This document shows, piece after piece, positions 21,995-48,446 of a DNA stretch of 64,000 bases; position 1 is the stretch's first letter; each line of letters begins with the position of its first letter. The notes beneath the pieces were generated by a model, which did not search any database, was not told where the DNA came from, and saw only the letters and a list, made by a program, of their open reading frames with translations. Position numbers and translations under genes: made by a program. Source of the DNA: an uncultured Candidatus Saccharibacteria bacterium (GTDB lineage: Bacteria; Patescibacteriota; Minisyncoccia; Phycocordibacterales; Zambryskibacteraceae); NCBI GenBank assembly GCA_964383705.1, contig CAYLHJ010000002.1, positions 1,635 to 65,634 of the forward strand, in the 5' to 3' direction.

Positions 21995-23005
21995 TTGGAG
22001 GTTCAAATGATGCTCATGATTATAGGCTTTTGGGAGAAAGCGTTCCTTCTCATGGTCGGAACAATCTCCCTCGGCACAGTAGTGGCAATCATTGCATGGT
22101 TTGGCTTCGATAGGCTTGTCCTAAAGATAGCAGACTATGACAAGTGGTGGTCCATCTTTCGGAGACTCCCACTTGAAGGCACTGTAGCATATATTCTGAA
22201 GGGCGGACCTGGCGGTCCAGTCCGCAAAGTCATCCACTCTGTACCGGGCTGGAGTATCAATGAAGATGGGATTTTTATTCCCATCCCAGAACCGGAGGGC
22301 GGATATCTCCGCAGAGAGCTCGGAGTGGTGCTAGTCTGGCCAAATAGCAAGTTCCATACCAGGACCCGACACTATGAGGTACTGGAGCAAGTGCAGGGCC
22401 AGCATGGCGCGGTGATGGTCCCAAAAACGCGCGAGGGTTCTGAATTCTTTTTTCAAACGGTGATCAGCATTGAAATCGTTGCTGCGGAAGATAAGGGTAA
22501 CTTCCCAATCAACGCTAAGGCAACTTTTACAATGCGGATTATCCAACCAATCACAGCAGAATTCACTTCTGGTAAGCCCGAAGTCCAAGCAATGTCTGCC
22601 GCTCGAGTCATGGCAAGAGAATACATCGGCTCGCATCACTTCGATGAGCTTCGAGGTAAAGTCCACCCTGTTCCAGACAATAGCTTGATTGAATTGTTTG
22701 GAATAGAAATCATTGCCATGCGACTCGAAGAATTCAATCCGGTAGATCCGGATAGTGACTATGCCAAGGCAAATCGATTGAAGGAAATCAATCGACTCAA
22801 TGCCGACGCAGCAGGAGAAAAAGCTCGGGAGATAGAGGTGCTAAGCAAGGCTGAAGAAGCAAGAGTCCTCCGGGTTTATGGAGCTAAGGCGGGAGTCAGG
22901 GATGGTGGTTTAATCGCCATGGCCGAGGCCATCGAGTCTTCTAAACCTTCGACCTTGGTAGTTGGGAATTTCCCAACATCAATTCCCCTTCCACCGATTA
23001 AGTAG
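21995..23005 (+). CDS. SPFH/band-7-like membrane protein (GC-rich gene)
   Basis: N-terminal TM, a central beta-rich region, and a C-terminal Ala/Glu-rich coiled-coil (EINRLNADAAGEKAREIEVLSKAEEARVLRVYGAKAG). GC is about 50%, clearly above surrounding genes. The family call is tentative. Confidence 0.45.
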   Translation: MEVQMMLMIIGFWEKAFLLMVGTISLGTVVAIIAWFGFDRLVLKIADYDKWWSIFRRLPLEGTVAYILKGGPGGPVRKVIHSVPGWSINEDGIFIPIPEPEGGYLRRELGVVLVWPNSKFHTRTRHYEVLEQVQGQHGAVMVPKTREGSEFFFQTVISIEIVAAEDKGNFPINAKATFTMRIIQPITAEFTSGKPEVQAMSAARVMAREYIGSHHFDELRGKVHPVPDNSLIELFGIEIIAMRLEEFNPVDPDSDYAKANRLKEINRLNADAAGEKAREIEVLSKAEEARVLRVYGAKAGVRDGGLIAMAEAIESSKPSTLVVGNFPTSIPLPPIK

Positions 23006-23127
23006 CTCTGCCCGCACCAAAACAGTATGAGCCCAGCAACGAATTAGTTGCTGGGCTTTTCCATTTGACAGATTGTATTATTTTATGATATAGTTCGGGA
23101 AGATCAGTTCTGTTAAATTTCCTTTTC

Positions 23128-24378
23128 TTGGAGGCGCCCATGTGGGCAACAATTCGACGATACCCGAAGCGGCTGGTTTTCTTTATCGCTATCTCAATAG
23201 TTCCAATCTTCTTCTTGCTTTTCTACACCCTCTCCCACTACTCAAAGAACGAGAGTGATGTGGTGCTGGAGAGACAAGATTCAGTAAACGTAGTTACGGC
23301 CCCAACCACAGAAAGAGAGCATGAGGGGAGCGCGTCTGGATTCTTTATCCCGCTGATCCTCATTGGCGTCGCAGGCTCTATATGGAGAATGGTAAAGGGG
23401 CGTTGGCCTCATATCCTGACAATGGCGATTTTGGCTAGCGGGATTCTTTTCAACTGGCTTTGGTGGTCAATCCATCCGGCAAGTTGGCAGGAATGGCGTA
23501 ACTCGTCTAGCTTCTGGCCACTGATTTTCTCCATGTTTATCGTCGCCTTTCTCAGTGGAGAAAGTAACCCCGTTGCGAAATTCGCCCGCGGCGCTCTTCT
23601 TGGGCTCGTGATTGTGAGCATCGCCATTGGGGTAACGAGCTATGCGAGAAAAAGTTGGTGTTGGGCAGCTTCAGATGAGGCGAAAGCCCAACTCTGCGCA
23701 ACTACTTATAGTTCAACATCGACCGTCTCGCTTCCTGCGAAGTTTGACGGCCATGCTCGGGATTACTTCAATGGACCCGAAAGAGACTCCGTCCTCGCCT
23801 ACTTCCACGACATCCCCGTACTTGCAGATATTGCTGGAGCCGAATCCGGTTTCAGGCAATACAACAATGGTTCTCCTGACAGGTCCTGTAGCACTGTCTT
23901 GAGAAACAAGAACACGAATGGTACGGAAGACATGGGGGTAATGCAGATCAACGAGGTTCACTGGGGAAAAGCCAAAGAACTCGGGCATGATCTCTGCTTG
24001 CTCAAGGGAAATATGGCTTTCGCCAGACACCTTTATGAGCAAGATGGCACCCAGCCTTGGGAAGCGTCGAGTCCTGTTTGGCGAGATCACTATGTGTCGG
24101 TTCCAAGATCCACCTCATCCACCCAAATAGCGGTAGGGGGCGGAAATACCGTAACTGTTATTGCTCCAAGTGATAGCAGTTGGAGCACCCCCATCGACAC
24201 AAAGGGTCGCAGGACAAGATGTGAAGGAATTCAACACAAGAAATACCGCGCCCTGATTGATAGGAAAAGAGAATTCCAAATCGAACCTGGCGCCTTTAAG
24301 AATGTTGGCCAGTTCCGCTTAATCCAATTCCGTTCAGACAGCTCAGAAGCAACTGAGGTTTCCTGCACGGTCGGATAG
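23128..24378 (+). CDS. polytopic membrane protein with C-terminal lytic transglycosylase (SLT/lysozyme-like) domain (GC-rich gene)
   Basis: About five N-terminal TM helices. Then an SLT-like motif set (AESGFRQYN...GVMQINEVHW...AFARHLYE). GC-rich like the preceding gene. A hairpin terminator follows. Confidence 0.6.
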   Translation: MEAPMWATIRRYPKRLVFFIAISIVPIFFLLFYTLSHYSKNESDVVLERQDSVNVVTAPTTEREHEGSASGFFIPLILIGVAGSIWRMVKGRWPHILTMAILASGILFNWLWWSIHPASWQEWRNSSSFWPLIFSMFIVAFLSGESNPVAKFARGALLGLVIVSIAIGVTSYARKSWCWAASDEAKAQLCATTYSSTSTVSLPAKFDGHARDYFNGPERDSVLAYFHDIPVLADIAGAESGFRQYNNGSPDRSCSTVLRNKNTNGTEDMGVMQINEVHWGKAKELGHDLCLLKGNMAFARHLYEQDGTQPWEASSPVWRDHYVSVPRSTSSTQIAVGGGNTVTVIAPSDSSWSTPIDTKGRRTRCEGIQHKKYRALIDRKREFQIEPGAFKNVGQFRLIQFRSDSSEATEVSCTVG

Positions 24379-24398: not shown

Positions 24399-24432
24399 GG
24401 GCGCAGACAAGCAATATGTCTGCGCCCTTTTT
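24399..24432 (+). terminator. rho-independent terminator
   Basis: Hairpin gggcgcagacaagcaatatgtctgcgccc followed by ttttt. Confidence 0.75.
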
Positions 24433-24439
24433 CATAAAC

Positions 24440-24475
24440 AAAATAGCGCGAGAATATTTCTCGCGCTATTTTGAA
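24440..24475 (-). terminator. rho-independent terminator for the minus-strand pilin-like gene array
   Basis: Perfect inverted repeat aaatagcgcgaga / tctcgcgctattt with a U-tract on the minus strand. Convergent with the previous terminator. Confidence 0.6.
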
Positions 24476-24486
24476 TCCCTCAATTA

Positions 24487-24756
24487 TTAATTAAGTGGAT
24501 ATATATTTGTGGAAAAACCGAACGAATTGAGCACGAAACGAATAATACCAAAAACTGAAACCATAATGAGCATGCCAACAAGACCCCAAACAATAGATTT
24601 CTTACCCTCTTCCCTTGCTTTATCCTCGCCGGAATTCATAACAAACTTAAAAATACCGTAGAGAAATACAACAAGTGCCACGCTAAACAAAAGTATAATT
24701 ATCGGATTAAGGATAAACTCATTAACCTTGTTGATAAGCGCAACAATTGGAGACAT
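24487..24756 (-). CDS. VirB2/TrbC-like (T4SS-pilin-like) small two-helix membrane protein, paralog 1
   Basis: 89 aa with two hydrophobic helices separated by the charged loop NSGEDKAREEGKKSIVWG. Shares the Gx(E/D)Exx(K/R)xG(K/R)xxxxWG core with the five upstream paralogs. Confidence 0.6.
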   Translation of the reverse strand: MSPIVALINKVNEFILNPIIILLFSVALVVFLYGIFKFVMNSGEDKAREEGKKSIVWGLVGMLIMVSVFGIIRFVLNSFGFSTNIYPLN

Positions 24757-24780
24757 GTAAATCTAATCTAACTTGATTAA

Positions 24781-25080
24781 CTAGAAACCAGGAACGTATG
24801 GAGTTTCGGAAATCTGAGATTGTCGGATGCCGAAGATATTCCCGAGGAAAGTAGTAAGACCCCAAACAGTTACCATGACGAAAAGGGCTACAACCCCCCA
24901 AATCATAATTCGTCTTCCACGTTCCTTGGCCTCCTCATTTCCGGCAGCAAGAATGAATGTTGCCAATCCCCAGAAAAAGAATAGCAATGCGAGACCAGCA
25001 ACTATAGGTGTTGCTGTTTCAACGATATTGCCAATTTGTGTTATGAGCGTATTGAAATATGTAAAACCCGGAGTATTCAT
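24781..25080 (-). CDS. VirB2/TrbC-like (T4SS-pilin-like) small membrane protein, paralog 2
   Basis: LALLFFFWGLATFILAAGNEEAKERGRRIMIWGVVALFVMVTVWGL: two TM helices around an acidic/basic loop. Confidence 0.6.
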   Translation of the reverse strand: MNTPGFTYFNTLITQIGNIVETATPIVAGLALLFFFWGLATFILAAGNEEAKERGRRIMIWGVVALFVMVTVWGLTTFLGNIFGIRQSQISETPYVPGF

Positions 25081-25209
25081 CGTATTAAGTTTAATTTAAC
25101 TTATTAATAATCCTTATAATCAATTGAGTACATTAATGATAATAACTCAAAAAACCTCTAAAAACAACGGACTGGGGACAATTTTTCTCCCCCACCCCCA
25201 CACAAAACC

Positions 25210-25536
25210 CTAATTAACAGGAAGACTATATATAGGAGAACCGCCCAGAAAAACATTTTGAAGAAGTTCAACAATTCCCCAAATAGAAATCATTACAAAA
25301 AGGGCTACAACCCCCCATATTAAAAGCCTTCTGCCGTCCTTAACCGCCTCCTCACTTCCCGCCGCCAATATAAATTTGGCTATACCCCAAAAAAATAGAA
25401 GAAGAGCAACACCAATCGTGAGAGGTATAAGACCTTTCAGAATTGAAGCAATGGTTCCAATAATATTCTGGATACTTGCCGTAGCGGCAAAAGAAAATAT
25501 TGGGAAAATAAATAAAATCAAAATTTTCTTTTTCAT
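25210..25536 (-). CDS. VirB2/TrbC-like (T4SS-pilin-like) small membrane protein, paralog 3 (with signal peptide)
   Basis: N-terminal signal-like MKKKILILFIFPIFSFAATAS, then LLLFFWGIAKFILAAGSEEAVKDGRRLLIWGVVALFVMISIWGI. Confidence 0.6.
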   Translation of the reverse strand: MKKKILILFIFPIFSFAATASIQNIIGTIASILKGLIPLTIGVALLLFFWGIAKFILAAGSEEAVKDGRRLLIWGVVALFVMISIWGIVELLQNVFLGGSPIYSLPVN

Positions 25537-25961
25537 GGATTTGTATCAGGTAGTTGGGGTAGCCCTATCGGACCAGAACCAAAAATACTGTTTGAAAGAA
25601 CTTGGACTATACCCCAGATAGAAACTGCAACAAAAATCCCAACTGCTCCCCAGAGCATAAGATTTTTTCCTTCCTTTTGAGCATCTTCACTTCCCCCCGC
25701 TTGAATAAACTTCACTAGACCCCAAAAGAAAACAACTACTGTTGCACCAACTAATACTGGAAATAAAGAACTCGTTATATTTGTAACAATACAAATAAAA
25801 TCACCGAAATTTTGTGGAGGACCAGACGGGGCGCCAGAAAAAACTCCAGCTGGATTTGAAACGCATGCAGCATAAATCGTATTTGGCGAAAAAATCAAAC
25901 CAACCATAAAAATAATTACAAGAAAATGAAACAAAATATTTTTTAAAAAATAGATCCTCAT
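25533..25961 (-). CDS. VirB2/TrbC-like (T4SS-pilin-like) small membrane protein, paralog 4
   Basis: Signal/TM N-terminus, then VVVFFWGLVKFIQAGGSEDAQKEGKNLMLWGAVGIFVAVSIWGI. A 4-nt overlap (ATGA) with paralog 3 suggests an operon. Confidence 0.6.
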   Translation of the reverse strand: MRIYFLKNILFHFLVIIFMVGLIFSPNTIYAACVSNPAGVFSGAPSGPPQNFGDFICIVTNITSSLFPVLVGATVVVFFWGLVKFIQAGGSEDAQKEGKNLMLWGAVGIFVAVSIWGIVQVLSNSIFGSGPIGLPQLPDTNP

Positions 25962-26365
25962 GTTAGCTGGTCAATAGTGGCCTTTATCGCAGCAGAAATC
26001 GCCCAAGCACCCAAAAGCACCGCTGTACCTATGGCCGCGTACAGAAAAGCTCTCTTTGCTGTTTCAAGCTTAGTCTCATTTCCTTGCGCCGTTACAAAAA
26101 GAAAACCGGCGTAAATAATATATATTACGGCAATAACGCCGCCTAAAGGCAAGATGACAGTATTAATTATCAAATCAATGAATTCATACAGACTATCAGC
26201 ACCAGAAGCTAAAGGATTTGGTATTGATATGCTATATGACGGGTCATTTCCACCAATATCACCATCATCATTACCACCAATATCATGATTGCTAGCAAAA
26301 ACAGTGAAAGAGAGAGAAAGGAAGGTTATAAAAGATAGGACAGCTATATAACGAAATCGTTTCAT
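25958..26365 (-). CDS. VirB2/TrbC-like small membrane protein, divergent paralog 5
   Basis: Signal peptide. A Gly/Asp-rich stretch (HDIGGNDDGDIGGNDPS). Then two helices around the loop QGNETKLETAKRAF. 4-nt overlap with paralog 4. Confidence 0.5.
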   Translation of the reverse strand: MKRFRYIAVLSFITFLSLSFTVFASNHDIGGNDDGDIGGNDPSYSISIPNPLASGADSLYEFIDLIINTVILPLGGVIAVIYIIYAGFLFVTAQGNETKLETAKRAFLYAAIGTAVLLGAWAISAAIKATIDQLT

Positions 26366-26387
26366 ATTTGTAATATTATATCATTCA

Positions 26388-26795
26388 TTAAAAACCAATA
26401 AGAGTGAAACCTTGACCGGGCAATAATAAGGCTCTCACAATTGTATTTACGATCAGCCAAGCTGATAGAACAACAACAAAGCCAATTCCGGCTTTTGTAA
26501 AAATAGATTTAGCCTTTTTTGCCTGCCCCTCATCCCCCGCTGAAGTAAGATAAAGGAAACCAGCCCAAACAAAAGAAATTGCAACCAATGCGGTAGACAT
26601 GATAATAAGAAAATTTATTATCCTTACACCAAGTTCTACCAAGTCATTAAAATCACAATCATTGGGATCAACAGCCGGATCACAAAAAATTAGATAGCCG
26701 GGTTCTTGTGGTGAATCGGCCGAAAAAACTGGTAACGCAATAAAAAAGATTGAGGTGATAACTACAAATAAAATCTTATTTGAATGACTTAACAT
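26388..26795 (-). CDS. VirB2/TrbC-like small membrane protein, divergent paralog 6
   Basis: Signal peptide. A Cys/Asp-containing segment (FCDPAVDPNDCDFND). Two helices around SAGDEGQAKKAKSIF. Confidence 0.5.
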   Translation of the reverse strand: MLSHSNKILFVVITSIFFIALPVFSADSPQEPGYLIFCDPAVDPNDCDFNDLVELGVRIINFLIIMSTALVAISFVWAGFLYLTSAGDEGQAKKAKSIFTKAGIGFVVVLSAWLIVNTIVRALLLPGQGFTLIGF

Positions 26796-26797
26796 AA

Positions 26798-28087
26798 TTA
26801 TTTGAAATTATTAACCATCACTTGCAATTTTTGTTCTGTTTGGCTCAATGCTTCTTCGGTTCTTAATCTCCCCGAAGTTATTGACTCAACCATTTCTTTA
26901 AAAAGAATATTTGTCTCATTTATATCTGGATCAAGCCAACCACGAGACCATAATGCGCTCTCAAAGAAAAGAGTGAGAAAAGGATCTGTGGTCCCTCTGG
27001 ATATCACGTCCTTACGTATTGGTGGCAAACCAGTCAACTTTATTAATTCCGATATGGCCTCGGGCGAAGAAAGTCCGGCTATAACTCTAAGTGCACCAGC
27101 GATATTTTTGGAGGTCTTAGTGATTGCAAGTCCTTGCAAATCTCCATATGTGATTTTAGCACTACCAGTACGAGATTGAGGAATAGCAGAAACATCAAAA
27201 TTTAAATTAGGATTTTTAAGTTTCAAAGTATTTAGCTCGGAAGCGAAACCAAAATAAACCGCAAGATCTCCAGAAAGAAAAGCTGTTTGTGAATCTGGGA
27301 GAGACCTATTCCAAGAATAATGCGTCTTCGAAGGGTTAGAAAATTCTGTATAGAAATTTAATGCTGATAATGCTGGTGGAATTGCATAACCAAAATTATC
27401 TAAAATAGAAGCGCGATACCCAGTATCAGTTTTTGATATTATTGGGCTCCCTGCTTGAAAAATGAGCGTTGATATAATCTCTTTTGCATTATTTATATTT
27501 TGAAATTCACCAAAAGCGAGCGCTGACCGAGTTAGATTAAGAGCATTGTCTTTCTCTGTGAATTTCTTAGAAAATGCATAAAATTCATCCCAATACTTTG
27601 GTGGCGTAGCAGAGCCTAGAGAGAAAAGAATGTCCCGATTCCAATACATCACCAATGGATCAATTAGAATCGGAAAAGCAAATATTCCTTCCTTGTTCAA
27701 AAATAGTTCGCCTTCTTGGATAAATGTATCCCTAAACGTACGCTCAGAATAACTTTCAAAAGGCACTATAAATAATTTATTTTTTTGTTTCAGTAAATTA
27801 TCTTCTCCGATAAAGACAACATCTGGCCCAACTCCTGCGGCAATAGCCTCCACAAAATCCCTATCAAAATCACTTTTTGCCTTATATACATAGCGTATAG
27901 TAGTATTCTTATCTTTTGAAAGAGGCAATCGAGAATACATTGAAGAAAAATCTGTCTCTGATATTGTTCCCCAAACCAAAATATTTGCTCGCTCGCTTTG
28001 ATTTGGTCTTGCAAAAGCGAAAAGTAAGACGCCAATAATAATAAAAACTCCAAAAATGCCTGTCAGTATAATTTGAAATTTAGACAT
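26798..28087 (-). CDS. membrane-anchored extracellular solute-binding protein (ABC-type SBP family 1-like), no cognate permease adjacent
   Basis: N-terminal TM anchor. SBP_bac_1-like blocks (ILVWGT, AAGVGPDVVFIGEDNL, MYWNRDILF, PPKYWDEFYAFSKKF). The flanking genes are the pilin-like array and a methyltransferase, not ABC permease or ATPase genes. Confidence 0.6.
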   Translation of the reverse strand: MSKFQIILTGIFGVFIIIGVLLFAFARPNQSERANILVWGTISETDFSSMYSRLPLSKDKNTTIRYVYKAKSDFDRDFVEAIAAGVGPDVVFIGEDNLLKQKNKLFIVPFESYSERTFRDTFIQEGELFLNKEGIFAFPILIDPLVMYWNRDILFSLGSATPPKYWDEFYAFSKKFTEKDNALNLTRSALAFGEFQNINNAKEIISTLIFQAGSPIISKTDTGYRASILDNFGYAIPPALSALNFYTEFSNPSKTHYSWNRSLPDSQTAFLSGDLAVYFGFASELNTLKLKNPNLNFDVSAIPQSRTGSAKITYGDLQGLAITKTSKNIAGALRVIAGLSSPEAISELIKLTGLPPIRKDVISRGTTDPFLTLFFESALWSRGWLDPDINETNILFKEMVESITSGRLRTEEALSQTEQKLQVMVNNFK

Positions 28088-28088: not shown

Positions 28089-28616
28089 TCAATTCTTCTT
28101 GAAGATTATACCAAAATGGTGTTTTCCTGCTTGTATTTCCCTTTCAAAAACAAAACCCTTCTTCTCAAAAAGCTCCATCACTTTTTCCTTTCCAAATAAA
28201 GCTTTACTTTCTGGTCCAATACCACCAAAAGAATCTGACCAATCAATAACAAGAACACTGCCACCACTTTTTAAGACTCTATATGCCTCACTCGCAATAA
28301 TTGCTTTGTTACTGACCTGAAACAGAAGATTGGAAATGACCACGCCATCGACACCGGCATCCTTAAGTTTTGTTCCTCTTTCTTGTTCAAGATCTCCCCA
28401 GATAACCTCAATATTTGAAAGACCTCTTTTGAGACCATCTGCTTTTAATCTTGCCAATAAGTCTTTTTGTATATCAACGGCATAAACCTTCCCTTTTTCA
28501 CCAACAGCCATTGCAAGCGCAAATGCATAATGACCAGAACCAGAACCAAAATCGGCAATTATTGCACCAAGAGGAAATCTAGCCTGTTCAATATTTTTTT
28601 CTGGGTCTGAAAACAT
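28089..28616 (-). CDS. class I SAM-dependent methyltransferase
   Basis: Motif I IIADFGSGSGHYAFALA, post-I acidic motif VYAVDIQ, motif II VDGVVISNLL. Start taken at MFSDP. Confidence 0.8.
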   Translation of the reverse strand: MFSDPEKNIEQARFPLGAIIADFGSGSGHYAFALAMAVGEKGKVYAVDIQKDLLARLKADGLKRGLSNIEVIWGDLEQERGTKLKDAGVDGVVISNLLFQVSNKAIIASEAYRVLKSGGSVLVIDWSDSFGGIGPESKALFGKEKVMELFEKKGFVFEREIQAGKHHFGIIFKKN

Positions 28617-28666
28617 ACTTTCTGTGTATATATTATACACAAAAAGATTAATCCATATGGTAATTA

Positions 28667-31144
28667 TCAAAGACAGACGATCGAGGCGAGACTGTCTCCT
28701 TCACGGAGCTTCATGATACGAACACCTTGAGTTTGGCGTCCAAGCTTTGGTATTTCTTCAATGGACGTTCTGATAACTTGACCTCTTTTTGATATAGCCA
28801 CCACTTCTTCTTCGGAGGTAACAGTAACAGAAGAGATAAGCGGACCTGTTTTTGTAGTCACATTACCCGTTTTTATCCCAGATCCACCTCGATTTTGAAT
28901 TTTATATTCATCGAGACCGGTCTTTTTGCCATATCCATTTTCTGAAATGACAAGAAGGTGGGGTTTCTCAAAATCTTTTCTAACAATATCTGCAGCAATA
29001 ACCCTATCACCTTTTGAGAGTTTCATAATTCTCACTCCAGCAGCACCTCGACCCATTTCACGAACATCAGCTTCCTTGAAGCGAATGGCTTGACCTTTAC
29101 TTGTGACAAGCACAACACTATCTCCTTTTTCAACGAGAGAAGCCGAAACAAGAAGATCGTCATCAGAAAGTTTTATAGCAATAATTCCGCTTGATCTTAC
29201 ATCCGAAAAGCTTTTTGCAGAGACTTTTTTACCAATACCATTCTTGGTTGCCATAACAAGCGAGAGATTTTCTTTGCCTTTAGCGTCCTTTGAAACAGGT
29301 AGAATCGAAGTAATTTTTTCTTCTGACTGAAGGGCGATAAAATTCATTATAGACTTTCCTCGGGTTGCCCGTTTGCCTTCGGGGATATCATACATCTTAA
29401 TCTGATAGACTTTCCCTTTATCAGTAAAAAATAGTAATTCGCTGTGAGTACTTGCAGTAAGAAAATGGGTTACAAAATCTTCCTCCTTAGTATTTAGATC
29501 AACGACACCAACACCACCACGCTTTTGCTTTTTGTATTCGTCTGGATTTGTCCTCTTAATATAACCACCAGAAGTCAAGACTAAAGCATTTTCCTCGTCA
29601 GCAATAAGATCTTCTGGTGAAAACACCTTGGCCCCATGCTTTATTATCTTCGTTCGACGGGCATCGCCATATTTCTCCTGAATCTGAGCAAGCTCCTTTT
29701 TAATTAAACCTAGTACTTTTTTAGGACTTTCTAAAATACCTCGATATTCTTCAATAAGAGCTTTTACCTCTTTCAATTCGTCCTCTACCTTCTGTCTCTC
29801 TAATCCAGCAAGTTTCTGCAAACGCATTTCAAGAATAGCTAAGGCCTGTTTCTCTGAGAATTTAAATTTATCGCAAAGATTCTTCTTCGCATCTTCAACC
29901 GTTTTTGATGCCCTAATAAGTTTTATTATTTCATCGATATGATCAAGCGCCTTCTTAAGACCAAGTAAGATATGCTCTCGATCAAGCGCTTTCTCAAGAT
30001 CAAATTCTGTTCGTCTACGAATAACTTCTTTACGATGGGACACAAACTCTTCTAATATTTTTTTAAGAGAAAGTGTTTGGGGAATACCACCAACAAGAGC
30101 CACTAGATTAAAGTGAAAAGAATCTTCAAGTTGGGTATGTTTATATAAAGTATTAAGAACTTTCTGTGGCTGACTACCAGACTTAAGTTCAATAACAATG
30201 CGAATATCTTTTGCTGATTCATCACGAAGACCTTTAATGCCCTCAACTTTCTTATCTCTAACGAGTTCGGCAATTTTTTCAATAAGAGTCGCCTTATTCA
30301 CACGATATGGAATTTCAGTAATGATGATTTGGAAACTCCCTAATTTTGTTTCAGTAATCTCAGCCACTCCACGGACAACCACCCCACCTCGCCCAGTAGC
30401 ATAAGCATGGTGAATATCCTTCTCATTGAAAGCAATCCCACCAGTTGGGAAATCTGGCCCTTTGATATATTCGAGAAGATCGTCTGACGTTGCTTCTGGA
30501 TTATCCACTAGAAAAGAAACCGCATCACAAACTTCAGTCAAGTTGTGCGGAGGAATATTTGTTGCCATTCCAACAGCAATTCCCAATGTCCCATTTAAAA
30601 GAAGGTTTGGCACACAGGTAGGCAGAACCGTTGGCTCCTTCTTAGTCCCATCGTAATTAGGTCTAAAATCAACAGTATTTTTTTCAATATCATTTAAGAG
30701 TTCCCCAGAAAGCCGGGACATCTTTGCTTCCGTGTATCGATAGGCTGCAGCATTGTCACCATCAATTGAACCGAAGTTTCCCTGTCCTAAAACAAGCGGA
30801 TATCTGGTTGAGAAATCTTGCGCCATTTTGACCATAGCATCATAGACCGAAGCATCACCATGAGGATGAAAACTTCCAAGCACATCTCCAACAACGGTTG
30901 CAGATTTTCTGAATTTAGACGTTGCCGAAAGCCCCATATTGTTCATGGCATATAAAATACGACGATGAACTGGTTTTAAGCCATCTCTAACGTCAGGAAG
31001 GGCGCGATCAGTAATAACTGACATTGCATAATCGATAAAAGATTCCTTCATCTCAGAAACAATGTTTCGTGAGATAACATTGACTCTTTCTCCGCCACTT
31101 ATTGGGTTTTCTTCTTTAGAATTTTCTTTTTTTGCCATATACAA
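28667..31144 (-). CDS. gyrA: DNA gyrase subunit A
   Basis: N-terminal [32 protein letters not shown] with the active-site Tyr context. C-terminal beta-pinwheel repeats. 825 aa. Confidence 0.95.
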
Positions 31145-32175: not shown

Positions 32176-33415
32176 TATGACTATATATTAGCATATGCAA
32201 ATGATCTCTGCCAGCCAATTATAGACCTATACAAAGCCATATTATATAGCTTTGTGGTTTGTGGATAAGATAATGTGTTGACAAAATTTGAGGACATGTT
32301 ATGATGGGAGTAGAAGCACATCGCAGTTTATCTATAATGAACCGCCTCCACATTGATGATTCACATCATCTTAGGGGCGGCGAAGGATCCGCAAGCACAA
32401 GCTCTGCGGAAACGACGAAGAGGAGAGGAGGTTTCATGACCCGGCTCGCCCGCGGCAGCCCCCATCAGGGGGGTGACATCAAGAGGACCCATTCGACCGC
32501 CGACCAGACCAACGACACCAACATCACCGGCTGATCTTCGGCCGGCTCGGGGTGAGAGCATGAACAAGATTGGGGAAGAGCCCCAACCCATGACCTCACC
32601 CCTCCCTTTCCCCCATAGAGCCCGATGGGCCCGTGCGGGAAAATTCGCGGATTGTCGACGATGGTCCGCGATGCTCGTCCACTTCTCGCCGATGAATCGG
32701 CCAGAACTTCACCTGCGGAGATCGAGCCATGCTCAGCAAGCTGGAAACCGTGCGGGGGGAGCCCGCGGAGATCTGGACGCCGACCGAGTGAGCTGACAAC
32801 ACCGTTCCTGCGCCAAAAGCGTGAGAAAGGAAGATGGCCACGAGGCACCCAGTCTAGCCACTGGGCTCGTCGATAAGATACTTTACTAACTTTCCGCCCA
32901 ACGAAAGCCCCTTCTATTTTGATCGATTCCCTAGTCCCGTATGAATGGGCCGGGTGTCGCAAAACAGCTAAACGCCGAAAATCCTGGTGATTAATAATCA
33001 CCGGATAGTCGCCAAACAGCTAGAAGGCAGATGGCGAAAACTTGGTGGGCTCTTCGCCCCTCGGTGGTGTCTACGAAACACTACCTCAAGTATTCGCGGT
33101 CATGGCATATGGCGGAAAAAGCCACCATTAAAGAAAACGGCGAGAAAAACAGAGAGTACAAACGCTCCGAGGCGCGTCATAAGCCTCGGGAACAGGCACC
33201 CAGTGTGGTGCGCTTCCAAAGAAGGGTCTTTGACCCTTGCCCCCACGACAACCGTTGTGGGGGCTTTCTTTATATATAGACAAATACAGATCTTTGCGGT
33301 AGACTTTCGCTTGTCTTTAAATTTTTAGAAGAGACATTAATTATACGACGCAAGAGCTAATCCCACTTAGGAGAATAGTAGAAACGGCAACAGGTGGACC
33401 TCGGCGGGCAAAAAA

Positions 33416-41748: not shown

Positions 41749-42825
41749 TCAAACAATCAATATTTCTGAGAATAAGCTCGCCCTATACACATAGGTCAAT
41801 ATGATAATGAGAGCAAGCAAACCAATTCCATATAGTATATGTTGTGTATGTTGCTTTCTAACCTCAATGATTATCATAAGAATAAGAGACAAGAGAACAA
41901 AGGCCCCAAGAAATATATAAAGATAACCAATTGTCATTTTTGGACTCGTTATTATGCGGCCAATTAATGATATAAATTTTTGCTTCTGAGTTACCTTATC
42001 TGAATATATCGGCTGGATTGATTCACCGCCGTCTTGAAGCTCAATATAAGTCTCCGCTTGACCTAATACGCTGAAACCATTTGATTTTTCTGAAAGCGTG
42101 GTAGTACTTGTGGTGCTCACATTAGCACTCTTGGCCGGCAGAGTGGTGCTAGAGTAATTAGCATTAGTCTGAACAATCTGGTTTTGATTAATATCTTTTT
42201 TGTCGTTTGTAATTTCTGTTACCGGATCGGGCAATTGAGATGCCAGTCTTGATTGCTCTTGTGGTTTACCAAACATTTGAACAACAAAAACAGTTTCATA
42301 ACCTTTGTAGAAACCTCTTGCGGTCGCCACACCAATTTCCGTAAATTTACTATTTAATATATTTGCACGATGTCCTGCGGAATTCATCCAAGCGTCATCT
42401 ACTTCTTCTGAATCAGAGAAATTTACTGCAAGATTCTCACCCGCATACACAAAGTCATAACCGACATCTTCAAACCAGTACCACGGAGTTTTGCCATCCG
42501 GAGATGTGTGAGCAAAATAACCCTTAGTAGCCATGTCATTCGCTTTTCTTTGGGCCGCAAGTTCAAGAATTGGATTGATTGTCAAATTTCCAATTTTATT
42601 TTCTGTCCTATTTTCATTAGCAAGACTTACGATGGTGCCAGATATCACAGCGCTCAATAAACTGCTGTTTTGGATTAGCGCGACATTCATCGTACCTATA
42701 AAAAAAAGAAAAAGGGCTAAGGAAGAAATGACCGCCAAAGAGGCCTCACGCATGATGTGTGGCTTATACTCATTCTTTTCATTTGGAATAAAATACTTTT
42801 TCAAGGCCCCTATCATTAAAACCAA
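41749..42825 (-). CDS. membrane-anchored CAP/SCP/PR-1 (YkwD-like) domain protein
   Basis: N-terminal TM helices plus a CAP domain (ANDMATKGYFAHTSPDGKTPW..GENLA..AWMNSAGHRANILNSKFTEIGVA). Confidence 0.7.
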   Translation of the reverse strand: MVLMIGALKKYFIPNEKNEYKPHIMREASLAVISSLALFLFFIGTMNVALIQNSSLLSAVISGTIVSLANENRTENKIGNLTINPILELAAQRKANDMATKGYFAHTSPDGKTPWYWFEDVGYDFVYAGENLAVNFSDSEEVDDAWMNSAGHRANILNSKFTEIGVATARGFYKGYETVFVVQMFGKPQEQSRLASQLPDPVTEITNDKKDINQNQIVQTNANYSSTTLPAKSANVSTTSTTTLSEKSNGFSVLGQAETYIELQDGGESIQPIYSDKVTQKQKFISLIGRIITSPKMTIGYLYIFLGAFVLLSLILMIIIEVRKQHTQHILYGIGLLALIIILTYVYRASLFSEILIV

Positions 42826-42849
42826 TTATATCACATTTATTCAAATATT

Positions 42850-43458
42850 TCAATATCCAACCACTCTTTCCGTAAAAATGACTAAACGCTCGCTATACAT
42901 CTTTTTTTCCGGAATCCAGATACCATCACATGTTATCAAATTAAGCCTGCTTTCAGAAGATTGTCCGAATATATCCAAAAGTGGAGGATTTAGGTAATCT
43001 ACAAGTCTAATCTCCTTAACGGCAAAGACCACTTTCTCTCCATTGGCATTCTCTGCAATAATTTCATCGCCAATATTTATATCTCTCAAATTATGAAACA
43101 CCGCAGGCTTCCCTTTTCCATCGTCCAAGTGGCCAGCAAGAACCGAATTGCCTATTTGCCCAGGGGTAGGACCGTATTTATACCAGCCAACATCTTCAAA
43201 TCTCTCTGGCACCGCCATATTACCACTTTCAGTTTTACCAACCGAAATCACCGCAGCATCTATACCTAAATTAGGAATAACGATTCGAGTCGGAGCAGAG
43301 GAAGAAACAACCCCGCTATAGACGCTGGCCGGAACTGGCACAACGACCGATCTCTGATCTAAAAAAGGAATCAGAAAGAAAATAATGCCAATAAAAAAGA
43401 GGAGAATAATGGTAAAAATGATTCTGTTCTTAGTGGAATTTAAATCCAAATGAATCAT
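42850..43458 (-). CDS. sortase (transpeptidase)
   Basis: N-terminal TM anchor, catalytic His (VLAGHLD), Cys in LNLITCDG (TLxTC-type), and a downstream Arg. Confidence 0.85.
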   Translation of the reverse strand: MIHLDLNSTKNRIIFTIILLFFIGIIFFLIPFLDQRSVVVPVPASVYSGVVSSSAPTRIVIPNLGIDAAVISVGKTESGNMAVPERFEDVGWYKYGPTPGQIGNSVLAGHLDDGKGKPAVFHNLRDINIGDEIIAENANGEKVVFAVKEIRLVDYLNPPLLDIFGQSSESRLNLITCDGIWIPEKKMYSERLVIFTERVVGY

Positions 43459-44087
43459 GTAAGCATTGCTATATACAATTTCATCAGTCTAATAATCTCC
43501 AATATAATTTTCTCTCTTTGGGCAAATTCATCCTGAATTTGAGCAGTTACCGGAGTTTGTTTAATAAAAAGGCTGGAAGGAGATTCTTCTTCTGTGGGCA
43601 ATCCGAAATAAACCACGATATATTGTCCAACTTTTCCATTGTGTTTACCAGGCTCCGCCCCTACTCCTATCTCTGTATAAACACTATTTAGGATGTTTGC
43701 CTTGTGTTTTGATGATTTTATCCAATTTTTTAAAACCTCCTTTGGTGAAGATAAATCTACTGCCAAATTTTCCCCCGCCAATTTATATTGATAGCCGACT
43801 TTTGCAAGTGAAGGCCAAGGTTTATCTTTTGCTGATTTAATGTGCACAAGGTAACCAAGCGAAACAAGCTCTTTGGCCCTATCTTGAGCGGCCATAGATA
43901 GTAAAGAATTCTCTAAAAGAGCACTTTTACCTTGAAGTTCCCTGTATTTATTTATTTCTGTAATTAAGCCATTAATATCAAATTGACCAGACGCAAAGCT
44001 CGTCACATAAAATGATAAAAAAAACAAAACAAAACAAGTAATCCCAACCAGAGGTTTTATCGCCATACATTTATTATACCAATACAA
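43455..44087 (-). CDS. CAP/SCP/PR-1 (YkwD-like) domain protein with signal peptide
   Basis: Signal peptide plus a CAP domain (AQDRAKELVSLGYLVH..GENLA..NWIKSSKHKANILNSVYTEIGV). Overlaps the sortase start. Confidence 0.7.
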   Translation of the reverse strand: MYWYNKCMAIKPLVGITCFVLFFLSFYVTSFASGQFDINGLITEINKYRELQGKSALLENSLLSMAAQDRAKELVSLGYLVHIKSAKDKPWPSLAKVGYQYKLAGENLAVDLSSPKEVLKNWIKSSKHKANILNSVYTEIGVGAEPGKHNGKVGQYIVVYFGLPTEEESPSSLFIKQTPVTAQIQDEFAQREKIILEIIRLMKLYIAMLT

Positions 44088-44126
44088 GCAACAACCATGC
44101 GATTGTTATTTGTCTTAGATATAAAT

Positions 44127-47100
44127 TTAATTAGTCTTTCTTTTCTTTGAAACAGAAGCGGAAACCAAGTTCAAACCCATAATAGATAGAGTCAGTGAAA
44201 TCAAAGCCATGAATGTTGAGAATGACTTTTTGTTGTCTGCAAAATTGATTGGACCATTCCCCGCATTTGGCAAACCTGGGAGCTCCGAAGTTGCACCCAA
44301 AACTTCCCCTAAAGGACTTATGCCGCCGGCGCCACCGCCACTTCCACCACTACTTCCACTGCTACCCCCACCACCCCCATTATTTCCACTACTACCACTA
44401 CTACGACGTGATGAAGGTGAAGGTGGATCATCATCACTTGTATCAACATTAGTTACAATTATCTCTTCTTCTGAAGAATCATCATCGTTTGAATTCACCA
44501 CATCAAATTTCTCTATAGACTCATCAATAGAAACTTCACCAAGACCAGAGATATTTTCCCAACCATCTTGCATAATTTCATCTAGAACATAATCTCCAAA
44601 TGGAACATCTTCAAATGTTACGCAACCATTGTCTCCTGTAACACCGCTATATCCTTCATAAATGTCAACTAACAAACTACCGGAATTATCTGCAAACCAA
44701 GATGGGTTTTGAACATTGTTTTCTCCATCAAATATGCCGAAGTTAACGGGGCCATCTGAAAGCGGAGTGAATGACTGCCAATAACTGTGATCACCCTTAT
44801 ACCCGCCCCAGAAACTAAACTGGCCTTGAATTCTTAAATCCAACACATCATCTGACTGCGAGAAGCCCGGATATACTTCTAGCGGTGATACCCAATTATC
44901 TACAGTAGAATATTCTGCATCTGCTGGATTATTTCCTCCTTGATTTGTCCATGTCCCGATTGCATTAGCTAAATACGAAGTTCCGGAAAGGAGAGCTACC
45001 GAATCTGCTCCAGCAACTAGACTAGAATCAACTGATAAATCGTTCTGAACTTCTTCCCCTCGGAGCATTATTGTCCATCCAGAAAGAAGGTTTTCTTCTG
45101 AAATTTCATCATCGTATTTACATACGGTTACACCAGCAATTTCTGGATCAGGTTCACCATCTCCCGGATCATTTGGTTCTTCTGGCTCACATGCACCAGA
45201 GCTAATTCCCAAAGTTACTGAAGATGAGGCGCTAATTTCACCATCCTCGCCATATGAGGCGCTAGCATTTGCTGTGTTTTTTACGTCACAAATATTTGGC
45301 ACCTTATGAAACACTCTAACAGCATCGACATCATAACCGTCTGCTGTTGTTTCAAATAAACTTTTATTAGATGACTCTGAAAGACGAATCTTGTCTGATG
45401 TGGAGAGAGAACCTAAATCAACTTCACCATCGCGATCAACAATACCTAGATCAACCCAGTTAGATCCATCCCAAGCCTCAACTTTTACCGATTCTGTTGG
45501 ATATGTTCCGCCCGTAGTCTCATAAACCTTAATATCATTTCCAACACCATTCCATACTGGATTATCAAAGGTAACAACAATATTTCCATTATCAAACCCT
45601 AAAGCAAAGAAAGAGTTCGGGACAACAACATCAGAAGCGCTTCCATTTGTTTGAGCTACACCTAATATATAGCTTGGATCAGATCGTTCTGGTAAAACAT
45701 TTGTTCCATCTTTCCTTTTCCCTTGATTATTATCTGAAGTACCACTAGCCCATTCATTCATTGATAAGGCGGCGTCTAGAGTTACTTCAAAAGATAGTGA
45801 CCCGTTTGCTCCAGCACTCTTTGATCCAAGATTCCATGTTACAGTCCCTGGTAGAAGGCCATCATGTACTCCGCCATCTGTCGCAGAATCAACGACATAT
45901 GTTGTGCCAGTCGGTAAGTTGTCAGTAATAACTAAATTATCTACATCATCATCGGAAACTTTCCAATCAATGGTAAAAGTAATTTTACCAGTGCTTGTAG
46001 CAAATGTTGCACTCTTTGAGAGCTCTAGGGAAGGAAGATCGGGGCAAGTTTCATTCTCAACTATAATATATCTATCTTGTTCTAAATTCTCAAAATTTGG
46101 TGATTGAGATAGTAGGTCGTTAGCCTTAGCATCAGCAAAACTTCCACCAACTCTGTACCCCAAAAGTCTATACTCGCCAGGAGAACATTCTCCACCAATT
46201 GGAATAACCCTACCGTCATCTGTTATTTCATTCGTTGAATAGTCAGCTGGAGCGTTCATAACGGCTGTATTTGCTTCATATGGGTCACCATTAAATCCAG
46301 TTGCATTTAACCCATAGAAACCACTGCCATTATTTCCAGGATAGACTACATCCCCAACTTTGACTTCAGGCCAATTCCAACTTGATTGCATTGGAAAATC
46401 ATAATCATTGGCAGATTCAGAAGTTGCATGTTCACCATCTAAGTATTTTGCTATATGAACAACAACAGTATTTCTCTCTTCGGGAGGAGGAGGTGGTGGT
46501 TCACCACAATCTTTACCATTCCATGAAAGAGCAAACATTAGGCCTGCTGGATTGGATTCTGGACTACTTCCATCAACTCCTTTATTAGTTGCCTCAATTT
46601 TTATTTCATTTGACCCACTTACGAGCAAACTAGATACATCGTAGGAATCTTGAGTGCCTATTTGAAAATTATTCTCATCAACAAGTTCTGCTCCAACCTG
46701 AATTCCATTTACCCAAACAGTGTAGAAATTATCTGCCGCAACATTTAATGTGCCACCTATTGGCGTTCCAGGGATGTTAAAGTTTTTTATAAATGTTTTT
46801 GTAGTATCTACCAAAGTGTCTGCTGGCAAGACTGGATTTTCAGACCAAATCCACTTTGCACTATCACTACTTCCATCTACATCAGCATCCCATGCTGGGT
46901 GCGTAGGCGACAAAACGACAGCAAAAGTGTCTGGGGTATCACCTGGATTATCTAGTTTGGTATCGTTATTACTTACTACCAAACCATCTATAGGATCACA
47001 TTCTTCTTTTTCTTCTTTACATTGCACGCTTACATTGTCGAGGAATGTTCCAACAGAGTTGCCAGTTCCACGATCCTCAAATTGGATACGGGAAAGAGAA

Positions 47101-48446
47101 TCATTTGCAACAACCGTTTTTGAATATTCTGTCCATTCCGTTTGAGAATCAGTGCTATTCAAAGAAAATGGTGAACCATTAACATCTGTCCCTTCCCAAG
47201 TAACTCCAAGAATATTTTGGGTATCATTTTCTCCAGGTCGAGGTGAAAAAGCGAATTTTATTTCATATTCACGACCAGGAACAGTAGGAATATCTTGATA
47301 AATTTTTGTTGAAGCCGGCTCTCCGCTTGTATCCCCATCTGGGCCTTCCCAGTCACCGTCTAATTCAGTATGTTGCAAACCGTCAAAAGAGAGCCAACCA
47401 TTAACATTCCTATGAAGTTCGAGGCTTGCTAATTCTGGCTGATTATCCCCACCAAATGGTCCTTCTGTATTCATCCATTCAACGGCCCAATCAAGATTAG
47501 AAGTCCCATTGTCAAAATTATCCCATAGTGCTCCGTGTGTAACTTCAGGGTTTTCGAAACTGCCATTCTTTATGAGTTCCTCTCCTGGAACGCATTGGGT
47601 TGGTTCCGGTTCAGGATCACGGGGAGCATTTTCTTCACACCAAGCGTCTCTAGTTTCTTTTTCTTCAGCATCTTCCCCTTCATAAGGAAAATCGCCGTGG
47701 TCCTCATGTTCATTCCAAGCACTTTCATTTATTTTAATTGCTTCCCATGGGTTTTCTTCTGAACCAGTAGCGTGACAAATATTTATTTTTTTCTCTTCAG
47801 ATTCTCTTTTTGTGCCCGTTACTTGGACATTATCAACTCTGGCGCCGCTCTTACTTGAATATGTTTTACCATCAAATTTTATAACAACAGAATCGTCAGA
47901 AAGTTCTGTCGGAAGAGCAAAAGTGACCTCAGGACTCCACACCGTTACATTCTTTATATGATATTCACCTAATTGTGTATATGAGGCATCAGTAGCTTTT
48001 TTCCAATAGACAATAAGTCGATCTGTAGATTCAACTTTATCGCCCGAATCTCCGCGCCACTTGAATGTCAACTGTATATTTTTGTATCCAGACACATTAA
48101 CAGAGTGAGAAATGGAAGCATTCTCTGTAAGACGAGCATTGGCACCAACAAGAGGAGAATTAACATCCTTGCGAGCAAAACTGGCGTTTCCTTCAATCTC
48201 CACCCAACCATTTCCAACATTGTCATTGTTTACAGCACCAAATGATTCTGAAAATAATACACTTGGAGATAAAGCTATCGCCTCCTTGACCGCAATGAGG
48301 CCTGGGCCAAATGCCTGAATGATCATCAAGAGAGACAATGCAATACTAGTAGCTGGACGAGCTTTCTTGAAAAGGAGTTTTGAGATTTTTTTTCTTTTAT
48401 AAATCATATTAGTAATTATTAATAATGTTAATAAAATAAACCACAC
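44127..48446 (-). CDS. giant cell-surface protein (1439 aa) with C-terminal sortase-type sorting signal
   Basis: Signal peptide, then long beta-rich Asn/Asp/Gly/Thr-rich repeats. A Gly/Ser linker (GGGGGSSGSSGGSGGGAGG). The C-terminus has an LPGLPNAG motif, a hydrophobic helix and a basic tail (SKKRKTN). Confidence 0.8.
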   Translation of the reverse strand: MWFILLTLLIITNMIYKRKKISKLLFKKARPATSIALSLLMIIQAFGPGLIAVKEAIALSPSVLFSESFGAVNNDNVGNGWVEIEGNASFARKDVNSPLVGANARLTENASISHSVNVSGYKNIQLTFKWRGDSGDKVESTDRLIVYWKKATDASYTQLGEYHIKNVTVWSPEVTFALPTELSDDSVVIKFDGKTYSSKSGARVDNVQVTGTKRESEEKKINICHATGSEENPWEAIKINESAWNEHEDHGDFPYEGEDAEEKETRDAWCEENAPRDPEPEPTQCVPGEELIKNGSFENPEVTHGALWDNFDNGTSNLDWAVEWMNTEGPFGGDNQPELASLELHRNVNGWLSFDGLQHTELDGDWEGPDGDTSGEPASTKIYQDIPTVPGREYEIKFAFSPRPGENDTQNILGVTWEGTDVNGSPFSLNSTDSQTEWTEYSKTVVANDSLSRIQFEDRGTGNSVGTFLDNVSVQCKEEKEECDPIDGLVVSNNDTKLDNPGDTPDTFAVVLSPTHPAWDADVDGSSDSAKWIWSENPVLPADTLVDTTKTFIKNFNIPGTPIGGTLNVAADNFYTVWVNGIQVGAELVDENNFQIGTQDSYDVSSLLVSGSNEIKIEATNKGVDGSSPESNPAGLMFALSWNGKDCGEPPPPPPEERNTVVVHIAKYLDGEHATSESANDYDFPMQSSWNWPEVKVGDVVYPGNNGSGFYGLNATGFNGDPYEANTAVMNAPADYSTNEITDDGRVIPIGGECSPGEYRLLGYRVGGSFADAKANDLLSQSPNFENLEQDRYIIVENETCPDLPSLELSKSATFATSTGKITFTIDWKVSDDDVDNLVITDNLPTGTTYVVDSATDGGVHDGLLPGTVTWNLGSKSAGANGSLSFEVTLDAALSMNEWASGTSDNNQGKRKDGTNVLPERSDPSYILGVAQTNGSASDVVVPNSFFALGFDNGNIVVTFDNPVWNGVGNDIKVYETTGGTYPTESVKVEAWDGSNWVDLGIVDRDGEVDLGSLSTSDKIRLSESSNKSLFETTADGYDVDAVRVFHKVPNICDVKNTANASASYGEDGEISASSSVTLGISSGACEPEEPNDPGDGEPDPEIAGVTVCKYDDEISEENLLSGWTIMLRGEEVQNDLSVDSSLVAGADSVALLSGTSYLANAIGTWTNQGGNNPADAEYSTVDNWVSPLEVYPGFSQSDDVLDLRIQGQFSFWGGYKGDHSYWQSFTPLSDGPVNFGIFDGENNVQNPSWFADNSGSLLVDIYEGYSGVTGDNGCVTFEDVPFGDYVLDEIMQDGWENISGLGEVSIDESIEKFDVVNSNDDDSSEEEIIVTNVDTSDDDPPSPSSRRSSGSSGNNGGGGGSSGSSGGSGGGAGGISPLGEVLGATSELPGLPNAGNGPINFADNKKSFSTFMALISLTLSIMGLNLVSASVSKKRKTN

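Follow-up and report, generated by a model that had tools for sequence, protein, structure and literature searches.

The DNA analysed here is a 64,000-nt stretch of contig CAYLHJ010000002.1 (GenBank assembly GCA_964383705.1, deposited under the name of an uncultured Candidatus Saccharibacteria bacterium), which we call the window. Its sequence is also present in the Logan assemblies of SRR33452760, SRR12822863 and SRR12816583. It carries on its minus strand a gene for a membrane-anchored protein of the solute-binding protein (SBP) type, followed by a tandem array of six genes for small membrane proteins. These are numbered P1 to P6 by position, so that P6 is transcribed first and P1 last (Table 1). 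A sequence-only reading of the window had singled out the six as paralogs of VirB2/TrbC, the pilins of type IV secretion systems (T4SSs), lying between a lytic transglycosylase and an orphan SBP. The six minus-strand open reading frames (ORFs) and their kinship with pilins have held up; the neighbours turned out to be arranged otherwise, and comparison with about 80 related loci shows an array led by the SBP gene, with its pilins in a fixed order.

The SBP gene and six pilin genes form one operon

The kinship of the array proteins is established by family profiles. All six exceed the gathering score of Pfam family PF18895 (T4SS_pilin), set at 26.6 bits, with 32-46 bits and E values from 1e-7 to 4e-12, P2 scoring best, and public precomputed annotations concur. 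P5 is the only one that also matches PF04956 (TrbC/VirB2), at 30.6 bits for a gathering score of 27.9; P1-P4 and P6 give no match to this model at E <= 1. The NCBIfam model of the Mbov_0395 pilin-like proteins (NF045849) is matched by all six below its cut-off of 40 bits, by P1 with 37.8 bits (E 1e-9) and by the others with 18.7-29.9 bits, down to E 1e-3 for P3. Judged by these profiles, the six genes encode VirB2/TrbC-like T4SS_pilin paralogs of the kind found in genomes of the Candidate Phyla Radiation (CPR).

The expected architecture, an optional signal peptide and two hydrophobic helices, is also borne out. A Kyte-Doolittle scan gives three hydrophobic segments in P3-P6, the first signal-peptide-like, and two in P1-P2, while the AlphaFold2 model of P3, built on an alignment of 116 sequences, is a hairpin of long helices (residues 22-57 and 62-95) with a predicted local distance difference test score (pLDDT) of 79. 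The pilin model superposes on full-length TrwL and VirB2; helical hairpins being non-specific in fold searches, this comparison with solved conjugative pilins is compatible with a VirB2-type fold, the match being neither specific nor discriminating. That lack of specificity, together with weak, sub-threshold matches of array proteins to assorted membrane families of Pfam, leaves some room for generic small proteins with two transmembrane (TM) helices (holins, bacteriocin-immunity or membrane-stress proteins) that would resemble pilins by their composition. We find this very hard to credit. Every one of the six passes the PF18895 threshold, no holin or immunity family, the alternative raised at the outset, figures among the Pfam matches, and P2 has no match in PHROGs; furthermore, the loop motif and class-specific features are conserved over a large clade, and the family is annotated and studied as a T4SS pilin in Patescibacteria.

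Between the two helices, the sequence-only reading had seen one charged core common to all six proteins. In the alignment this core, (A/G)G-x-(E/D)-(E/D)...G(K/R)(K/R)...WG, is shared by P1-P4; P5 and P6 make up a second subtype, with a different loop that lacks WG. To call P2-P4 nearly identical across the loop was an overstatement: over 82 ungapped columns identity is 53% for P2-P3 and 47% for P3-P4, against 36% for P5-P6 and 15-39% for the remaining pairs. The DNA between 24400 and 28100 contains no long repeat, cassette or invertible element, the best common stretch being of 59 nt at 61-78% identity, and a hidden Markov model (HMM) of the pilins finds no seventh copy in the window. At a smaller scale, an 18-nt direct repeat with a spacing of 24 nt (94% identical) lies within P5 at 26244-26285, where it encodes the acidic GGNDDGD-IGGND of the N-terminal extension.

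The SBP-like gene is the first of the module; with respect to transcription it is located upstream of the array, not downstream as had been stated. Only 2 nt separate it from P6; the P5/P4 and P4/P3 junctions are ATGA overlaps, as previously noticed, and a hairpin resembling a terminator closes the series. Because of this spacing, these overlaps and this hairpin, the SBP-like gene and the six pilin genes are one operon. Further upstream, the gyrA, methyltransferase and SBP genes abut or overlap, and at the other end back-to-back terminators separate the array from the convergent gene at 23128-24378.

As for the product of the leading gene, the earlier description of a membrane-anchored SBP-like protein without a permease partner was apt for the window. 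It matches SBP_bac_8 and SBP_bac_1 of Pfam (E 1e-17 and 1e-16), its AlphaFold2 model (pLDDT 92.7) combines an N-terminal TM helix with the two-lobe fold of type II periplasmic-binding proteins, and Foldseek retrieves with this model carbohydrate SBPs and maltose-binding protein (E 1e-23, TM-score 0.65-0.72). No ABC permease or ATPase that could be its partner was found among the window ORFs scanned, though partners may be encoded elsewhere in the genome, and inspection of its N-terminus by eye reveals no prepilin-type cleavage motif. Among relatives, conservation expressed as the majority fraction is 0.69 in the TM helix, 0.61 in the globular domain and 0.35 in the linker. Such conservation would be unusual for a simple anchor and, because the helix is more conserved than the globular part, it suggests helix-helix contacts within the membrane.

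Table 1. Coordinates of the SBP-pilin operon and of adjoining features (positions in the window)
Feature	Position	Strand	Description
SBP-like protein	26798-28087	-	429 aa; N-terminal TM helix (residues 3-25), variable linker, MalE-type two-lobe domain
P6 pilin	26388-26795	-	135 aa; signal-peptide-like N-terminus, extension with conserved Cys pair, two-helix hairpin; PF18895 42.4 bits
P5 pilin	25958-26365	-	135 aa; signal-peptide-like N-terminus, acidic repeat extension GGNDDGDIGGND, TrbC-like hairpin; PF18895 34.0 bits
P4 pilin	25533-25961	-	142 aa as longest ORF (124 aa in public gene calls); middle group; PF18895 38.3 bits
P3 pilin	25210-25536	-	108 aa; middle group; signal-peptide-like N-terminus; PF18895 33.0 bits
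Intergenic gap before P2	25081-25209	-	129 nt, AT-rich; candidate internal promoter or attenuator
P2 pilin	24781-25080	-	99 aa; no signal peptide, start at the equivalent of the mature N-terminus; PF18895 46.4 bits
P1 pilin	24487-24756	-	89 aa; no signal peptide; last gene of the array; PF18895 32.0 bits
Terminator-like hairpin closing the pilin operon	24439-24473	-	16-bp perfect arms, 3-nt loop, T-run
Class I methyltransferase	28089-28670	-	Pfam Methyltransf_31, E 1e-16; 1-nt gap to the SBP gene, 4-nt overlap with gyrA
Lysozyme-like protein (isl416)	23128-24378	+	416 aa; N-terminal membrane region, lysozyme-like domain (ES...GVMQIN...), C-terminal beta-rich domain; rich in G+C at third codon positions
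SPFH/stomatin-like membrane protein (isl336)	21995-23005	+	336 aa; rich in G+C at third codon positions

Pilin classes and their order in relatives

Related loci were collected by a search with the SBP-like protein, each GTDB species being represented by one genome. The best 80 of at least 431 relatives were kept, and with L001, a short contig of the same organism, they make up a set of 81 loci (identified by numbers with the prefix L). Pilins were found in them with the HMM of the six window proteins and assigned to classes by best match; all loci lie within the syntenic clade. The closest relatives of the window proteins belong to metagenome-assembled genomes (MAGs) labelled Zambryskibacteria, Paceibacteria, Vogelbacteria and Campbellbacteria, with 44-57% identity for the SBP and 66-83% for GyrA. 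Because of these relatives and identities we place the window, on protein similarity, in class Paceibacteria (Parcubacteria) of the Patescibacteria/CPR, close to Zambryskibacteria. Many of the closest MAGs (L002, L005, L013 and others) are named 'uncultured Candidatus Saccharibacteria bacterium'. They share the full synteny of Paceibacteria type, their GyrA is 66-83% identical to that of genomes labelled Zambryskibacteria, and their label seems to be a generic mapping at the level of the phylum, which does not designate Saccharimonadia.

The SBP gene is directly followed by pilin genes on the same strand in 77 of the 81 loci, that is, in all 77 that have enough downstream DNA. Far from being an orphan, it opens the module without exception in these loci. 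Arrays comprise mostly 5-8 genes, with 1-4 on loci truncated by a contig end or of Campbellbacteria type, and their order is fixed across about 70 genomes: P6 beside the SBP gene (in nearly all relatives), P5 second, then the middle group of P4/P3/P2 type, and P1 last. The copy-number comparison proposed by the sequence-only reading thus locates the variation in the middle group, which has between 2 and 5 members depending on the genome. Each class keeps its own signature, PC...C.F.DL in P6 (with exactly two Cys in 45 of 63 orthologs, near the mature N-terminus), IIYAGFLFVTA.GN in P5 and ILNP...FFYGI in P1; within the pilins, conservation is lowest in the N- and C-terminal tails. Positional orthologs have a median identity of 39-46%, similar to that of the SBP and above that of most paralog pairs, with a maximum of 74% reached among P5 orthologs; P5, P6 and P1 share no more than 36% with any paralog.

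These observations bear on the proposal that the array is a repertoire for variation, in which interchangeable major pilins would be swapped or differentially expressed according to the host strain or to escape recognition. A similar role has been proposed for the VirB2 paralogs of Anaplasma and Bartonella, and a published survey of patescibacterial arrays suggested it as well (PMC12102498); the variable number of middle-group copies and the poorly conserved tails would fit. We nevertheless regard it as unlikely, because the order is conserved, orthologs are more alike than paralogs, and the DNA between 24400 and 28100 lacks long repeats, cassettes and invertible elements. The position and signatures of P6, P5 and P1 are constant across some 70 genomes, and the genes are translationally coupled in one operon. 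The sequences are best explained by an ancient set of pilins in fixed order, divided into at least four classes (P6, P5, the middle P4/P3/P2 group and P1), with members that would not be interchangeable variants.

One gap within the operon is conserved too. The gap that precedes P2 in the window has a counterpart in front of the penultimate pilin gene of relatives, with a median of 100 nt (62 loci), as compared with medians of 3-21 nt at the other junctions; this conserved length suggests an internal promoter for P2-P1 or another regulatory element. In one subclade, the motif GGTCGTTTA recurs just 5' of the start codon of the penultimate, P2-class, gene. On the other side of the module, the methyltransferase gene, which a subclade lacks, adjoins the SBP gene in 58 of 79 loci. 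It is probably co-transcribed with the SBP-pilin module; a functional link is doubtful.

Is the SBP functionally tied to the pilins? In relatives the neighbours of the SBP gene are the methyltransferase gene or gyrA on one side and pilin genes on the other, and the SBP-pilin adjacency is kept despite a different upstream context in L009, L019, L071, L075 and the subclade without methyltransferase. Coupling is therefore suggested by gene order, not proven, because synteny in the clade extends over the entire hisS-infB region. No link between SBPs and pilins in Patescibacteria was found in the literature searched. Two loci are informative about the core of the module. A complete Campbellbacteria genome (CP011215.1; L063, 10001-13842) has a minimal version consisting of the SBP, a P6-class pilin and a P5-class pilin, after which come a convergent gene for a 159-aa protein with a TM segment and a beta domain, devoid of a lysozyme part, and an SPFH-like gene. 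In the second (JBBTXU010000042.1; L064, 9747-16259), an ORF of 2,170 codons with a signal peptide is inserted in the pilin array; it strings together He_PIG, Big_9, cadherin, PKD and fn3 repeats and a Pro/Thr-rich linker, and ends with a P5-class domain 47% identical to P5 of the window. Because the pilin domain lies C-terminal to an adhesin made of immunoglobulin-like, cadherin and PKD repeats, this natural fusion points to a location of the pilin N-terminus outside the cell and would tie the module to adhesion. Another kind of long protein was noticed: the highest scores against the six-pilin profile belong to proteins of about 240 aa, in the Vogelbacteria locus L085 (8763-9482) and under P0121-P0123. 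They are about twice as long as a single pilin, two of three carry a TrbC annotation, and the L085 copy belongs to an SBP-led array; by length and profile score they look like fused double pilins.

Neighbouring genes and the wider window

The gene of the membrane protein isl416 follows the array at its 3' end, on the opposite strand and convergent with it; it had been described as an upstream neighbour with an SLT lytic-transglycosylase domain. The membrane protein stands and, at the level of its family profile, so does a lysozyme-like domain; the upstream position does not, and the SLT assignment is doubtful. Taken as a single sequence, isl416 obtains 12 bits with Pfam SLT (PF01464) for a threshold of 21.3 (E 0.16). 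The motifs AESGF and GVMQIN are visible in it, ES and GxxQI recur in the family consensus (ES...GxxQI...GN..A..LY..G..W), and with the family profile the match is to C-type lysozymes (E 1.3e-5), not to SLT structures. Some members of the family have no lysozyme domain. That isl416 is an equivalent of VirB1 is possible. Its gene has its own promoter-like site (23065-23094) and terminator (24399-24427), and it is accompanied by the gene of isl336, a protein that by itself has no Pfam match. The family profile of the latter matches the PH stomatin 3bk6 (E 4.6e-21), and 19 of 29 family members contain Pfam Band_7 (PF01145).

Iterated searches among relatives place these families beside the array in 24 (isl416) and 29 (isl336) of the 30 loci that span the region. 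The pair is distinguished by its G+C content at third codon positions (GC3), 0.50 for isl336 and 0.54 for isl416, as against 0.25-0.34 for other genes of the window. In relatives, too, the pair has a higher GC3 than housekeeping genes do, in 22 of 23 loci and 24 of 28 and by 0.16 and 0.12 on average, even though the proteins diverge fast; one idea is that GC-biased gene conversion operates at a recombination-prone surface locus. A foreign island inserted after the tRNA cluster (the GC-rich segment 21950-24400) was considered and discarded, since both families occupy the same place, and are GC3-rich too, in the relatives just counted. A prophage origin was likewise set aside, as the pair has no match in PHROGs. 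By position and profile, then, isl336 and isl416 are conserved neighbours of the array, forming a separate convergent unit which is not an island specific to the window. Elsewhere, a minus-strand gene at 48654-49511, beside those of tRNA-Val, tRNA-Ser and tRNA-Glu, has a GC content of 0.54 and a GC3 of 0.56; its product has a signal peptide and a C-terminal TM anchor, with no match in Pfam or PHROGs. Taken with the isl336/isl416 pair, this gene points to elevated GC3 as a tendency among envelope genes of this genome.

Apart from these loci, the window is an ordinary piece of chromosome from a small genome of low GC content, with the genes of two ClpB proteins, topA, relA, parB, dprA, infB, rbfA, gyrA, rpsA, pth, lepB and hisS, as well as ftsA, ftsZ, trxB, tsaD, a class I aminoacyl-tRNA synthetase, lepA, murJ and 13 tRNAs; a signal peptidase gene is thus present. 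A minus-strand cluster at 41749-48446, with two CAP-domain proteins, a sortase and a surface protein of 1,439 aa with DUF11 and DUF642 domains, is likely to be another host-contact locus, unrelated to the array. Between a gene of the metallo-beta-lactamase fold and rpsA there is a patch of about 950 nt (32330-33280) in which GC content rises to 0.66, preceded by a near-consensus promoter-like site on the plus strand (32278-32305). Its ORFs have no match in Pfam or PHROGs, and no similar DNA was found in relatives, the same organism excepted. A structured RNA was looked for there and rejected, with no Rfam match at E <= 1 save one at chance level and no DNA conservation in relatives. The patch could be a fast-evolving GC-rich gene or an RNA of a new kind.

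Proposed assembly of the pilins and comparison with known systems

What might assemble these pilins? The array lies outside any T4SS cluster, as no T4SS gene appears among the window ORFs scanned against Pfam: neither VirB4 nor VirD4, whose absence had been correctly reported, nor VirB6 or PrgI (VirB5 was not sought with a dedicated profile). No VirB4/VirD4-type ATPase was found either among the ten largest unmatched ORFs in the 10-kb flanks of relatives, which encode a P-type ATPase, an SMC-like protein, lipases, a penicillin-binding protein, a vault-like protein, adhesins and two proteins without Pfam match. The vault-like protein, of 939 aa, has the repeat and shoulder domains of Major Vault Protein and is encoded in the flank of locus L044 (2288-5107). 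That an array of pilins without an adjacent ATPase should be unusual, as first thought, is not what the literature tells. Quinonero-Coronel et al. (2025, PMC12102498), who searched 3,035 Patescibacteria genomes for PF18895 and PF04956, report 1,948 VirB4-positive assemblies with VirB2-like pilins; the pilin genes lie near virB4 (within about 20 coding sequences) in 1,135 of these and away from it in 813, about 40%. Arrays of 2-11 pilin genes numbered 441 and came from 383 assemblies, with identities that averaged 25% and did not exceed 54%; these arrays were most abundant in Microgenomatia and Saccharimonadia, and host-range versatility was proposed as their function. In Paceibacteria the survey places virB4 near dnaA, and its Table S1 records VirB4 in 22 of 25 Zambryskibacteria assemblies, among them three that carry the operon described here (L003, L032 and L072).

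We think it rather probable that one operon supplies the SBP together with six differentiated subunits of VirB2 type, which a distal VirB4 T4SS assembles into a filament or conduit for host contact. The pilins would belong to a chromosomal T4SS of the monoderm type typical of Patescibacteria. They would be co-transcribed with the gene of the membrane-anchored, MalE-like SBP from the gyrA side, with a probable second promoter in the gap before P2. P3-P6 would be inserted by the Sec machinery and trimmed by signal peptidase, while P1-P2, which have no leader, would insert as hairpins. A machine centred on VirB4 and encoded elsewhere on the chromosome would then pull the subunits from the membrane and assemble them into an extracellular filament or a conduit spanning the envelope, in which the conserved charged loop would point to the inside and both variable termini to the outside. 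In this scheme P6 and P5 go with the SBP-like protein, whose ligand is probably a host-derived glycan or sugar at the site of contact.

Several points weigh against this scenario. Pili have so far not been observed in any patescibacterium, and the T4SSs of monoderms normally do without VirB2. The presence of a distal VirB4 machine in the source genome, though the simplest assumption, extends to it what is recorded in relatives, the window giving a view of 64 kb. The synteny from hisS to infB means that the adjacency of SBP and pilin genes could in part be inherited gene order rather than coupling. Finally, the T4SS cluster of Southlakia epibionticum, of which more below, has no SBP gene.

The module might also do without a T4SS. 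The SBP and the hairpins would then form a surface complex of their own, the small proteins providing the anchor or scaffold on which binding proteins and adhesins are displayed outside the cell, in a way functionally comparable to the archaeal bindosome. The adjacency of SBP, P6 and P5 is invariant and is the sole part kept in Campbellbacteria, the TM helix of the SBP is more conserved than its globular domain, a P5-class domain is the C-terminal anchor of the giant adhesin of L064, and the ORFs scanned in the window and in the 10 kb around related loci include no T4SS ATPase. Yet the family lies near virB4 in over half of the VirB4-positive assemblies that have it and inside the essential T4SS cluster of S. 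epibionticum, the SBP lacks a prepilin-type motif, and no other assembly ATPase is linked to the module. We give this alternative little credence. A bolder proposal, equally improbable in our eyes, is that SBP, P6 and P5 are the core of an unrecognised surface apparatus of Paceibacteria, where hairpins would carry the SBP or adhesins at the interface between cell and host, as a pilus for nutrient uptake rather than an exporter, with the SPFH/lysozyme-like pair as its partner in envelope remodelling. If this were true, capture of a ligand would be coupled directly to a T4SS-like conduit.

Reviews hold the role of the essential patescibacterial T4SS and its pilin arrays to be 'completely unknown', and the locus leaves its category unchanged: tandem pilin arrays, including arrays away from the ATPase, are already described. 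The comparison of about 80 Paceibacteria loci adds arrays led by an SBP gene, their fixed order, the SBP-P6-P5 minimum of Campbellbacteria, the adhesin fusion and the description of the neighbouring pair. With the SBP-P6-P5 core and the adhesin fusion, the role of these pilins becomes more testable, and three handles are offered: fixed pilin classes, two of these classes partnered with a sugar-type SBP, and an adhesin-pilin fusion that fixes topology. An SBP-led array hints at how these parasites contact their hosts or feed on them and, were the link to the SBP functional, it would be the first genomic clue tying the structure to the capture of a host molecule.

The nearest known systems are the pilin arrays of other Patescibacteria. 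With six tandem genes at 15-53% identity, the window array falls within the published definition of 2-11 tandem genes of low identity. It shares with them PF18895 genes in tandem, some of which also match TrbC, structurally similar and divergent paralogs of 89-185 aa, and a chromosomal location with no relaxase nearby. Southlakia epibionticum ML1 has six PF18895 genes as well, SEML1_0014-0019, all essential (Wang et al., 2023, PMC10633639), which adjoin VirB6-, PrgI- and VirB4-like genes. By contrast, the window array is headed by an SBP gene, lies outside a T4SS cluster in a housekeeping context between gyrA and infB, and belongs to class Paceibacteria. A review of 2025 found the six-pilin array remarkable and speculated on a conduit for uptake from the host, and in Paceibacteria that parasitise methanogens T4SS_pilin ranks among the most expressed genes without assigned function (Kuroda et al., 2024).

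With the pilins of diderm bacteria (VirB2, TrbC, TraA and TrwL of the T-pilus, F-pilus and R388 pilus), the window proteins have in common a signal peptide, two helices and a short charged loop. They differ from them in their monoderm host and in being six differentiated paralogs, two of them without a leader, where the diderm systems use one major pilin; here one sees no sign of enzymes for cyclisation or acetylation and no adjacent virB gene among the ORFs scanned. The Mbov_0395 proteins of a Mycoplasma integrative and conjugative element (NF045849) are likewise small, two-helix, pilin-like proteins of a monoderm T4SS, present however as a single copy on a mobile element and not as a chromosomal array. 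Farther away, in the bindosome of Sulfolobus (the Bas system), sugar-binding proteins are genetically tied to small pilin-like membrane proteins. The Bas proteins resemble type IV pilins, with class III signal peptides and a dedicated ATPase, whereas the small proteins of the window are of VirB2 type, with an SBP that lacks a prepilin motif and with no ATPase linked to them. In the T4SSs of Anaplasma, Bartonella and Rickettsiales, virB2 is present as a tandem series of several divergent copies, in some cases apart from the other virB genes, and a role in antigenic or host-range variation has been proposed for these paralogs. In the SBP-led arrays, by contrast, order and classes are conserved over a wide clade, a better fit to fixed and distinct roles.

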